Shown piece by piece: positions 30,457 to 32,242 of a stretch of DNA of 32,242 bases; positions within the stretch are counted from its first letter, which is position 1; the number at the start of each line of letters is the position of its first letter. Below the pieces are notes generated by a model, which searched no databases, was not told the origin of the DNA, and was given only the letters and a program-made list of their open reading frames with translations. The translations under genes and the position numbers were made by a program. The DNA is taken from sequence record SRR31156797_864; one strand, written 5' to 3'.

Positions 30457-31035
30457 ATGAATACAATATACAACGAACTATCAAATAATGAAAAAATCCT
30501 GTGGGAGGGGCAGCCTAATAACAAACTATTTGTTCTAACAGATTTATTAATTATTCCCTTTAGTATAATGTGGACAAGTTTCGTAGTTGGTTTTGAAATG
30601 ACAACATTTAGAGCAGTAGACACACCATTGTTTTTCAAGCTTTGGGGTGTTCCATTTATACTTGTAGGCTTATACTTGTTATTTGGAAGGTTCATTTACA
30701 AAAGCTATATTTCAAGAAATACCTACTATTATGTTACAAATAAAAGAGTTATTATTAGGAAAGAACTACAAAAACCACAAACAACCAGTATTTATTTGCT
30801 TGAGATAGATGAAATACATAAACGTATATGCCGAAATGATAAGGGAACAATAAGATTAGGATCGTCACTAGGTTTATTCAGCCTTTATGAGAATACAGGC
30901 TTGGAACCATTTGCACGTGGCAGACTAATAAATAATCCGCCAGTGCTCTATAATATAGATAATGCAGAGGATGTATACAAACTTATCTTAAATGCAAAGG
31001 AAAAGAATAGGCTGAATGAGACTTTGATACTATAA
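30457..31035 (+). CDS. Membrane protein with a bacterial PH-like domain
   Basis: EKILWEGQP, IPFS..W, GVPF..VGLY...GRF and T.Y.VTNKRVII motifs; AAGGAG RBS. Confidence 0.8.
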   Translation: MNTIYNELSNNEKILWEGQPNNKLFVLTDLLIIPFSIMWTSFVVGFEMTTFRAVDTPLFFKLWGVPFILVGLYLLFGRFIYKSYISRNTYYYVTNKRVIIRKELQKPQTTSIYLLEIDEIHKRICRNDKGTIRLGSSLGLFSLYENTGLEPFARGRLINNPPVLYNIDNAEDVYKLILNAKEKNRLNETLIL

Positions 31036-31118
31036 TAGTATATATCATTGTTATGCTAGATAAATTGTTATCAATATTTATTATTATTTATTGCAGAGAT
31101 ATTCCAACACGAAATTAT

Positions 31119-31147
31119 TTGACTCCCAAAAAATCGTATGATAGACT
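31119..31147 (+). promoter_or_regulatory. sigma-A promoter of the Thr leader
   Basis: TTGACT-17nt-TAGACT with a TG extension. Confidence 0.65.
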
Positions 31148-31173
31148 TACGTCAATAGATTTGGGAGTAAAAT

Positions 31174-31230
31174 ATGTACAAATCATTGAATATTACCACA
31201 ACCACCACCTATGAGGACTTATCTTTGTAA
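31174..31230 (+). CDS. Threonine-rich leader peptide MYKSLNITTTTTYEDLSL
   Basis: GGGAG RBS at 31163-31167; ACC ACA ACC ACC ACC at 31195-31209; overlaps the first hairpin of an attenuator. Confidence 0.8.
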   Translation: MYKSLNITTTTTYEDLSL

Positions 31231-31339
31231 TTAGCTAATTTAGCAATTAACAGCAAAGACTTAAGTCCTATTGTTGTTGGTTGCAGGGATAGATTATAAA
31301 CACCTTGCATACTGAATATAGTACACAGGGTGTTTTTTT
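31199..31339 (+). promoter_or_regulatory. Ribosome-dependent transcription attenuator (protector, antiterminator, terminator)
   Basis: 1:2 pairings CAACCA/TGGTTG, AGGACTTA/TAAGTCCT and TCTTTG/CAAAGA. 2:3 pairing TTGGT-TGCAGGG/CCTTGCA-t-ACTGA. 3:4 pairing AAACACCTTG/CAGGGTGTTT followed by a T run. Confidence 0.8.
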
Positions 31340-31363
31340 ATATGAAAGGGGGTGATTGTCTCA

Positions 31364-31447
31364 ATGAAATATGGAATTGAAGTAAACTTAATGCTTTTTA
31401 TCAAACCTAAGAGACAGCTAACCATTAACTTCTGCATCAATAATTAA
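31364..31447 (+). CDS. Possible 27-aa small ORF (MKYGIEVNLMLFIKPKRQLTINFCINN)
   Basis: Strong SD AAAGGGGGTGA at 31345-31355 directly after the attenuator terminator. Confidence 0.35.
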   Translation: MKYGIEVNLMLFIKPKRQLTINFCINN

Positions 31448-31468
31448 TAAAAATGATAGGAGTTAAAA

Positions 31469-31618
31469 ATGGAAAATTTCAAAAAAGAGTTGGTATAGAG
31501 ACTAGACATTGCGACTAAAGATATATTTCCTGATGTAAAACTTATAAATTGGGAAATTAATAACGAAGGATTTTACTGCGACTTTGATATGAGCTCAAGC
31601 AAAATAATAAGCATTTAA
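31469..31618 (+). pseudogene. 5' fragment of a threonyl-tRNA synthetase-like gene (N2/editing-domain start) with an internal TAG
   Basis: AGGAG RBS. MENFKKELV*RLDIATKDIFPDVKLINWEINNEGFYCDFDM resembles ThrRS LA.AVKELFP.AKL.IGP.IENGFYYDFD. Confidence 0.7.
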
Positions 31619-32016
31619 TTGAGAAAACATTAAATAGGATAAAAACTCAATTAGGTGCAGTTGATGCCGAATTAGATAAACACAAAAAGGCAAAAGGTTT
31701 CTTATATATGAATTTAATTAATAGAGATATTTCAGAAGATGATTATAGGTTTATGAAAACAGATTTTGAAACAAAATGTTTTGATCTGCAGAAGGAGAAA
31801 GAAAAGCTTAATAATGAATTGAATGATTACAATGATAGAGATTTGTTTGGTAATCCTATAATCAGCACATATACTAAGTATAAAGGCATCGAAAAGCTTG
31901 ATAGAAGGGTAGTTGCTTCACTTATTGATAGTATTATCATTGATGAGACTAACTCGATTAAGATATTATTCAAATTTCAAGATGAAATAAAAAAACATCA
32001 ATTCAAAAATTTGTGA
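31588..32016 (+). pseudogene. C-terminal remnant of a large serine recombinase (TnpX/DUF4368-like tail)
   Basis: Frame is open from 31588 without an RBS or start. Coiled coil, LY.......IS.DDY..MK and Y..I..LDR..V..LID.I.I.....I.I.FKFQDE pattern; no catalytic domain. Confidence 0.75.
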
Positions 32017-32113: not shown

Positions 32114-32198
32114 TGGTGGAGGGAGGTGGATTCGAACCACCGAAGTCGTCGACAACAGATTTACAGTCTGCCCCCTTTGGCCACTCGGGAACCCCTCC
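32114..32198 (-). tRNA. tRNA-Tyr(GTA)
   Basis: Reverse complement GGAGGGGTTCCCGAGTGGCCAAAGGGGGCAGACTGTAAATCTG...GGTTCGAATCCACCTCCCTCCACCA; long variable arm; encoded CCA. Confidence 0.97.
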
Positions 32199-32202
32199 AT
32201 AT

Positions 32203-32242
32203 TGGAGCTGATGATGGGACTTGAACCCGCAACCTGCTGATT
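32203..32242 (-). tRNA. 3' half of a tRNA, probably tRNA-Thr(TGT) (runs off the window end)
   Basis: Reverse complement AATCAGCAGGTTGCGGGTTCAAGTCCCATCATCAGCTCCA; common Thr-Tyr gene order. The anticodon lies just outside the window. Confidence 0.8.

Follow-up and report, generated by a model that had tools for sequence, protein, structure and literature searches.

Leader-peptide attenuators are textbook systems in Proteobacteria and are rare in Firmicutes, where T-boxes do the job. In the thrL attenuator of the thrABC operon of E. coli, a short open reading frame (ORF) led by a Shine-Dalgarno (SD) sequence carries a run of threonine (Thr) codons, and it works by ribosome stalling, alternative hairpins and an intrinsic terminator. 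The pheM leader of E. coli pheST, also an attenuator of this type, uses the codons of its own amino acid and controls the housekeeping synthetase of a proteobacterium. The his leader of Salmonella and E. coli contains more than four pairing segments, and the ribosome position decides a chain of alternative helices. In this study, we analyzed a DNA stretch of 32,242 nucleotides from sequence record SRR31156797_864, hereafter called the window, in which a first-pass annotation had proposed a Thr leader-peptide attenuator at positions 31119-31339, followed by a gene resembling that of threonyl-tRNA synthetase (ThrRS). Our results suggest that this element very probably belongs to a conserved family of ribosome-mediated transcription attenuators. 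Elsewhere, in genomes of the Clostridia class and in metagenome contigs, members stand before a short ThrRS paralog, whereas in the window the gene behind the leader is a relic.

Compared with E. coli thrL (RF00506), the window family has a Clostridia-class host and would control a synthetase paralog, not threonine biosynthesis. The thrL peptide mixes Thr and Ile, whereas in the window family the codon run is purely Thr and no more than a single Ile precedes it. There is also no sequence or structure match between the two, as RF00506 was not found up to E 10 over 30900-31800 of the window, nor in 16 family loci. As usually described, pheM-pheST is similar in that a synthetase is placed under a leader with its own codons, but its enzyme is the housekeeping one and its host belongs to the Proteobacteria. 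The likeness to the his leader is that one extra helix relays the signal to the terminator, although the segment layout is different; in the window family this helix, named B:2b below, would trap the antiterminator strand once the ribosome has come to the stop codon.

The T-box leaders of thrS and thrZ (RF00230) resemble the window family in giving more ThrRS when tRNA-Thr is uncharged and in taking the same position on shortened paralogs, but the window has no specifier loop or T-box sequence, and the sensor would be a translated ORF. At the gathering score, Rfam recognized only a tRNA-Tyr in the whole window, with no T-box and no Thr_leader, and up to E 10 over 30900-31800 neither T-box (RF00230) nor Thr_leader (RF00506) was found, which agreed with the first-pass annotation. 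Its remark that Firmicutes normally control thrS by T-boxes was borne out in the family of the nearest relative, where 22 of 23 genomes have a single full-length thrS and all 15 canonical loci tested carry a T-box (E <= 2.5e-6, 43.7-91.4 bits). The T-box gathering score in the Rfam copy used is 93 bits, and at that cut-off only one of 20 thrS loci (the L097-L115 set) shows a T-box; a scan at the gathering score alone would wrongly imply that thrS of the nearest family has no T-boxes. T-boxes of 97.7-134 bits were found before shortened ThrRS paralogs, both those of 557 and 588 residues without the TGS domain (L153 and L140) and those of about 590-610 residues (L149, L148 and L138).

Naville and Gautheret (2010; PMC2965389) reported His leader peptides before the hisS paralogs hisZ and hisS* in bacilli, and presented it as a finding that in some Firmicutes T-boxes are replaced by regular leader peptides. 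These His leaders are similar to the element described here in being Firmicute leader peptides before a synthetase paralog, where relatives use a T-box. They differ in the amino acid and the gene family, and their paralogs serve histidine biosynthesis or charging, whereas the paralog here is a ThrRS without its editing half. In Streptomyces lividans TK24, a thrL with two Thr codons and no clear terminator was predicted before thrS (PMC8079986). It is likewise a small Thr-containing ORF before thrS with a proposed Thr dependence, but it belongs to an Actinobacterium and precedes a full-length thrS. Our full-text literature search, supplements and subscription journals aside, turned up no report of a Firmicute or clostridial thrS preceded by a Thr leader. 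This agreed with the first-pass annotation, which knew of no Thr leader attenuator in Clostridia, although synthetase-paralog leaders of Firmicutes are in print (PMC2965389).

Leader architecture and the family of Thr leaders

Direct reading recovered all the upstream parts that had been described, each on the plus strand. The promoter-like site (31119-31147) consists of a -35 element TTGACT (31119-31124), a 17-nt spacer with a TG-n motif, and a -10 element TAGACT (31142-31147), and it reached 9/12, with the TG, in the promoter scan. A match of at least 9/12 within 90 nt 5' of the leader ATG was present in 29 of 35 related leaders, compared with 14.6% of shuffles. The SD sequence GGGAG (31163-31167) lies 6 nt 5' of the ATG of an 18-codon ORF (31174-31230), which encodes MYKSLNITTTTTYEDLSL followed by a stop codon. 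Five consecutive Thr codons, ACC ACA ACC ACC ACC (31195-31209), stand just after an Ile codon. The intrinsic terminator (31298-31339) is a 15-bp interrupted hairpin followed by a run of seven T (31333-31339), and just 3' of it is the purine-rich SD-like word GAAAGGGGGTGAT (31344-31356), which is kept in most leaders.

The fold of 31150-31345 reached -54.1 kcal/mol, whereas 200 shuffles gave -35.1 +/- 4.0 (z -4.73) and none was as good; it is composed of a long hairpin (31191-31291) and the terminator (31298-31335). The terminator stem claimed earlier, 31298-31307 with 31326-31335, appeared in the computed fold and was extended by 31310-31314 with 31319-31323. The protector helix, which had been placed at 31199-31227 with 31254-31283, came out in the computed folds as 31196-31232 with 31245-31287, its 5' arm lying on the Thr codons as proposed.

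Of 399 class-level genomes that were scored, 15 gave two strong thrS matches. Two genomes (L134 and L135) have a ThrRS paralog of 513-515 residues, the range of the family being 513-516 residues. This short paralog starts about 32 residues before GFYCDFD, has no TGS and no tRNA_SAD domain, and keeps the catalytic core and the anticodon domain; canonical ThrRS used for comparison has all four Pfam domains. The short paralogs are not threonine-free, as they contain 15-22 Thr per protein, a share of 3.7% compared with 4.4% in canonical ThrRS. Each of the two paralogs is preceded by a leader visibly similar to that of the window. Both genomes come from very small orders, of 1 and 3 genomes, which are too few to measure spread. 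With the two proteins as queries, 75 loci were found in metagenomes, 40 of which start near residue 1 with at least 300 nt upstream. A small Thr-run ORF was found in 36 of these 40, within 520 nt in 34 and farther upstream in two, and a 37th locus (L185), with a weakened Thr-run ORF, was recovered by the covariance model described below. As a control, none of 31 upstream regions of canonical thrS contained a small ORF with at least three consecutive Thr.

The 43 leaders, of which 42 are distinct, include 35 whose longest Thr run has four or more residues and two in which it has exactly three, and Thr makes up 207 of the 642 residues. The homologous leader ORFs have 11-20 codons, with 14 codons in 22 leaders, and the typical 14-codon peptide reads M, four varied residues, M or I, N, T-T-T-T, T or M, T or Q, and S. 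An SD-like word at -4 to -17 of the leader ORF was present in 36 of 37 leaders. Length differences in the Thr run and just 3' of it are multiples of 3 nt in all eight rows that have any.

A covariance model (R1) was built from 35 leaders with the window excluded and was searched against 24 sources; its calibration was shortened, so that the E-values are rough. The model matched the window at 31152-31352 on the plus strand with 69.2 bits and an E-value of about 4.5e-12, covering model positions 1-198 of 198. It brought up seven additional leaders and gave no match before canonical or T-box-controlled thrS genes. Rfam searches of the 16 family loci at E <= 0.01 gave nothing but tRNAs, with no Thr_leader, T-box or riboswitch. 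The Thr leader family is uncatalogued and is missing from Rfam 15. The R1 match, the conserved Thr run and the empty control agreed with the first-pass annotation on the kind of element, and its interpretation as a Thr leader-peptide attenuator is strongly backed at the family level. That annotation had named a Thr run not conserved in homologous leaders as a refutation, and the 35 of 43 leaders with four or more consecutive Thr contradict this. One leader (L169:1231-1469) has about 40 nt of extra sequence inserted in the apical loop of its long hairpin but nevertheless scored 112.6 bits, so that the apical region tolerates additions.

A blastn search of 31100-31640 found no match in plasmids or phages, and in the 301 genomes of the nearest relative's order it gave short AT-rich chance matches only, outside the leader. 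A degenerate pattern of the window leader peptide had no match in metagenome contigs or in viral contigs, and the tail of this peptide is, as far as such comparisons go, private to the window copy. Contigs from one DNA sequencing run (0.34 of sampled words) gave low-depth pieces of the window sequence and no other form, with some bins uncovered, and the search of sequencing runs brought up no RNA run containing this DNA. The lack of a close copy, the decayed surroundings (the stub, recombinase remnant and tRNA gene described below) and a GC content of 29% there, compared with 35.7% for the window, might be taken to mean that the element is debris, either a chance short ORF by the terminator of the upstream gene or an inverted-repeat end of a mobile element. 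We consider this highly improbable, and it is already contradicted by the full-length match to a model from which the window had been excluded, by the complete and ordered set of family leader parts, and by the stub, which belongs to the same gene family that the leader precedes elsewhere. With every part of a family leader present and in order, the window leader looks intact.

Conserved pairing and the proposed switch

In the window, the five Thr codons form segment 1a, whose partner is segment 2b (31271-31288), and the end of the ORF including its stop codon forms segment 1b (31214-31232), whose partner is segment 2a (31245-31269). Segment B (31243-31256) overlaps segment 2a and is the 5' arm of the alternative helix B:2b, with 14 bp to 31271-31284; this proposed anti-antiterminator came to light in the window when the ORF was masked in folding. 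Segment 2b can pair with the Thr codons, with B, and with the 5' arm of the terminator, and thus has three partners. The last pairing is the predicted antiterminator, which was computed as 31277-31281 with 31311-31315 and 31282-31288 with 31303-31309. The helix energies were -18.3 kcal/mol for B:2b, -15.6 for the terminator, -13.3 for the antiterminator and -10.2 for 1a:2b.

The same long hairpin and terminator were obtained when 37 leaders were folded together by RNAalifold, with compensatory changes in 18 of the 30 pairs. In this hairpin, the Thr codons pair with a GTCGT.GG strand, and the ORF end with its stop codon pairs with GTGTTAGCTC. Helix 1b:2a joins alignment columns 96-105 with 179-189 and has compensatory changes, and the terminator joins columns 237-246 with 264-273 and has many. 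The columns of helix B:2b were 97.9% paired in the 37 leaders, and its covariation score was reached by none of 500 shuffles; one of its pairs is CG in 16 leaders, UA in 10, AU in 6, UG in 3 and GU in 1. The antiterminator duplex had a median energy of -18.8 kcal/mol, compared with -9.45 for shuffled segment 2, and z was below -2 in 32 of 36 leaders.

The first-pass annotation had described the 1:2, 2:3 and 3:4 logic of enterobacterial leaders. Our finding agreed with this in kind, but that scheme omits the covarying helix B:2b, which would give the state with the ribosome at the stop codon its terminating fold. From the computed helices and their conservation we infer the following switch. 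A leader free of ribosomes would form the long hairpin (1a:2b and 1b:2a) and the terminator. A ribosome at the stop codon would cover 1b, and B would then pair with 2b, trapping the antiterminator strand and allowing the terminator to form. A ribosome stalled with one of the first Thr codons in its A site would cover the Thr run only, so that 1b:2a could form and exclude B:2b; 2b, left free, would engage the terminator's 5' arm and permit read-through. A shortage of charged tRNA-Thr would in this way switch on the spare synthetase, serving the purpose of the T-box on thrS and thrZ with the ribosome as sensor.

Ribosome-footprint folding was carried out on 36 leaders with no ribosome, with an initiating ribosome, with the A site on Thr 1-4, and with the ribosome at the stop codon. 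The pair probability of the terminator fell below 0.5 in none of the 36 leaders without a ribosome, at initiation or at the stop codon, and in 11, 12, 9 and 4 of them with the A site on Thr 1, 2, 3 and 4, respectively. In minimum-energy folds, the whole terminator was lost in 10 of the 36 leaders, and solely in the stalled state. In transcripts cut before the 3' arm of the terminator, half or more of the 5' arm was held by segment 2 in 34 of 36 leaders when the ribosome was stalled and in 13 of 36 when it was at the stop codon. The window transcript cut at 31318 gave 1b:2a and the antiterminator in the stalled state (Thr run masked), B:2b and just 3 bp on the terminator arm with the ribosome at the stop codon, and the long hairpin plus 6 bp when free. 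The antiterminator that had been proposed, 31277-31288 with 31303-31315, was therefore seen in the cut transcript with the Thr run masked but not in the full-length fold.

Several of our results weigh against this reading. At the family level, three of the 40 metagenome loci (L168, L174 and L231) have no leader at all by ORF search or covariance model, and six of the 43 leaders have at most two consecutive Thr. The terminator was kept at equilibrium in 26 of 36 leaders despite a Thr stall, and the cut transcript without a ribosome also gave the antiterminator in 25 of 36, so the arm of the model in which the lack of translation leads to termination would hold for full-length folds only, unless timing decides. 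The antiterminator columns showed no covariation above shuffles, and 264 of 500 shuffles reached their paired share; consequently, it is the pairing energy that argues for this helix. In the window, forcing 31180-31215 to be single-stranded had been expected to replace the terminator by the antiterminator, but the terminator stayed in the minimum-energy fold under this and every other mask, with a probability of 0.92-0.94 in every ribosome state. The window antiterminator had a z of -1.78, with 6.5% of shuffles as good, and is among the weakest of the family, similar to those of L158, L159, L203 and L135, which may reflect a habit of the subclade or early decay. Moreover, the regulated gene is dead, so the window copy may be decaying. 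These observations suggested that the three-state behavior of the window would belong to the kinetic version of the switch only, with none at equilibrium.

The terminator is separated from the synthetase start by a spacer of some 100 nt that is conserved in the window (31344-31468), in L134 and L135, and in 25 metagenome loci, and that opens with GAAAGGGGGTGAT. In L140 and L153, a similar SD-like word was observed after the T-box terminator. In 27 of 28 minimum-energy folds, the ribosome site of the synthetase is paired with an upstream CUCUCC-like strand (AGGAG with UUCU in the window), and the partners co-vary in some rows, for example GUUCUUC with GGAGAAC. It suggested that the spacer could be a second, translational lock. 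It also holds a putative second short ORF of 27 codons (31364-31447, plus strand). Across members, this frame has 20-35 codons and starts with ATG in the subclade of the window and with CTG or TTG elsewhere. The differences among members are not concentrated at third positions, so conservation at the RNA level seems likelier.

This spacer shows that the leader holds more than an attenuator, and it bears on the possibility that the leader is read by a protein, a tRNA or a small molecule, in which case the Thr-run ORF would be incidental to pairing between an ACC-rich and a GGU-rich strand. In its favor, segment 2b is a partner of the Thr codons, and ACC or ACT accounts for 150 of 179 Thr codons, which is what a constraint from pairing would produce. 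On the other hand, 36 of 37 leaders have an SD-like word with their start codon, the frame is always the Thr frame and its length changes come in threes (8 of 8 rows), and the residues before the Thr run vary freely while the run and the position of the stop codon are kept. The fold switch was seen only with a ribosome on the Thr codons, and neither the window nor the 16 family loci gave a T-box or riboswitch match in Rfam. A reader other than the ribosome is thus improbable, and ribosome-mediated attenuation agreed better with these features.

The synthetase relic and its surroundings

The gene that would be controlled in the window is a broken stub. The remnant of the short ThrRS paralog (31469-31618, plus strand) keeps codons 1-40, with an in-frame TAG at codon 10 (31496-31498), and the homology stops after 31591. 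Its frame from 31469 has its own AGGAG ribosome site and reads MENFKKELV, TAG, RLDIATKDIFPDVKLINWEINNEGFYCDFDM, nine unmatched residues (SSSKIISI...) and a stop codon. When the frame 31469-31591 was compared with 20 canonical ThrRS from the nearest family, all 20 aligned with it at one homologous site, the start of the editing domain; the best of these alignments had 50% identity over 26 residues (E 1e-4). With a profile made from the 20 enzymes, the stub scored 10.9 bits, while the best of 2000 shuffles reached 5.5. Eleven of 11 short paralogs aligned with residues 1-40 only, to 31469/31475-31591 (best E 3.4e-6), and the stub carries the N-terminus of the family, with the start about 32 residues before GFYCDFD. 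Residues 41-515 of the short paralog were not found in the window, which contains no intact frame of about 513-516 codons. Searches with the stub itself gave ThrRS at E 1.2 only among PDB sequences and no match in Pfam and NCBIfam, and a word-index protein search with its 49 residues against longer proteins gave no candidate. The first-pass annotation, which expected read-through into a ThrRS-like gene, was thus right about the likeness of the frame, but as this gene is a 40-codon stub with a stop codon, there is nothing functional to read through into, and the copy is a relic.

Directly 3' of the stub is the remnant of a recombinase or integrase C-terminus of 142 residues (31588-32016, plus strand). 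It matched the integrase profile phrog_95 (E 7.3e-5, profile positions 437-578 of 651) and genes annotated as 'recombinase family protein' on Clostridia-type plasmids (E 4e-11 to 3e-7), and DUF4368 at E 5e-4, which is under the cut-off. No relative of this remnant was found in viral contigs or in the flanks of 107 related loci. The simplest origin of the stub is likely a deletion from synthetase codon 41 into the recombinase gene within an island. A tRNA-Tyr gene (32114-32198, minus strand) marks the end of this decayed island. On the minus strand of 32199-32242, the last 40 bases resemble the 3' part of a second tRNA gene that is cut by the window end; in the sequencing run aligned to the window, contigs from many organisms accumulate at this point, and ARAGORN made no call there.

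In the relatives, tRNA genes (Pro, Arg, Gly, Thr, Ser and Ser) were observed within 1.5 kb of the cassette in six of 41 scanned loci (L157, L160, L166, L170, L194 and L225). Together with the tRNA-Tyr by the stub and recombinase remnant of the window, their proximity fits an island-like insertion near tRNA genes.

On the other side of the leader, ORF 30457-31035 encodes a predicted membrane protein of 192 residues without a Pfam family, which resembles PuhB-type assembly proteins only below threshold (E 1.3e-8, 34.9 bits; the cut-off is 110 bits); used as an anchor in genome contigs, it found no relative. The hydrogenase gene of the window has its closest relative, with 72% identity and shared gene order, in a metagenome-assembled genome of an Eubacteriales bacterium, and the neighbors AdhE, Rex-like and HydABC fit Clostridia.

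The gene content raises the question of what the leader reports. The cassette may be an inducible back-up or resistance module, in which an editing-less ThrRS is insensitive to whatever disables the housekeeping enzyme, for example a natural ThrRS inhibitor, oxidation or zinc shortage, and the leader reports a fall of charged tRNA-Thr, not the Thr supply as such. We regard this as a tentative alternative of rather low probability. It is in line with a paralog that has lost the TGS and tRNA_SAD domains and is a second thrS copy next to a full-length one controlled by a T-box, and with its patchy spread over two of 399 class-level genomes, both in very small orders. The frequent nearness of tRNA genes (counted as 7 of 41 loci) and the recombinase remnant beside the window copy are compatible with it, as are the nearest plasmid-borne relatives, which are cyanobacterial second thrS genes with 51-54% identity. 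A duplicated cyanobacterial ThrRS with impaired editing, induced and used under zinc shortage, has been published (PMC4787780). The sensing step of such a module is identical to that of the attenuator proposed here, so that the sequence cannot tell them apart.

A bolder version, which we hold to be doubtful, is that the leader and the editing-less ThrRS form a mobile, self-inducing rescue cassette with a two-tier switch, the spacer being the translational lock. Poisoning of the housekeeping ThrRS would stall the ribosome on the leader and would induce the enzyme that escapes, and the window would be the trace of an island next to a tRNA gene that has lost a cassette of this kind.

Significance of the Thr leader family

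Returning to the attenuator reading, the mechanism is classical, with an extra helix as in the his leader, and the family is uncatalogued. Its 43 well-conserved leaders are marked by a structure that covaries and by four to six Thr codons in a row, and they would do the job of the T-box in Firmicutes. The Thr leader sits exactly where shortened relatives of the same gene carry a T-box, which makes it a clean natural sensor swap. It would also provide a compact sensor of Thr-tRNA charging that is testable and reusable. For annotation, the lesson is that the window copy is a fossil, in which the leader survives and the gene does not. A conditional ThrRS paralog without its proofreading half further raises the question of when the cell accepts error-prone threonine charging.

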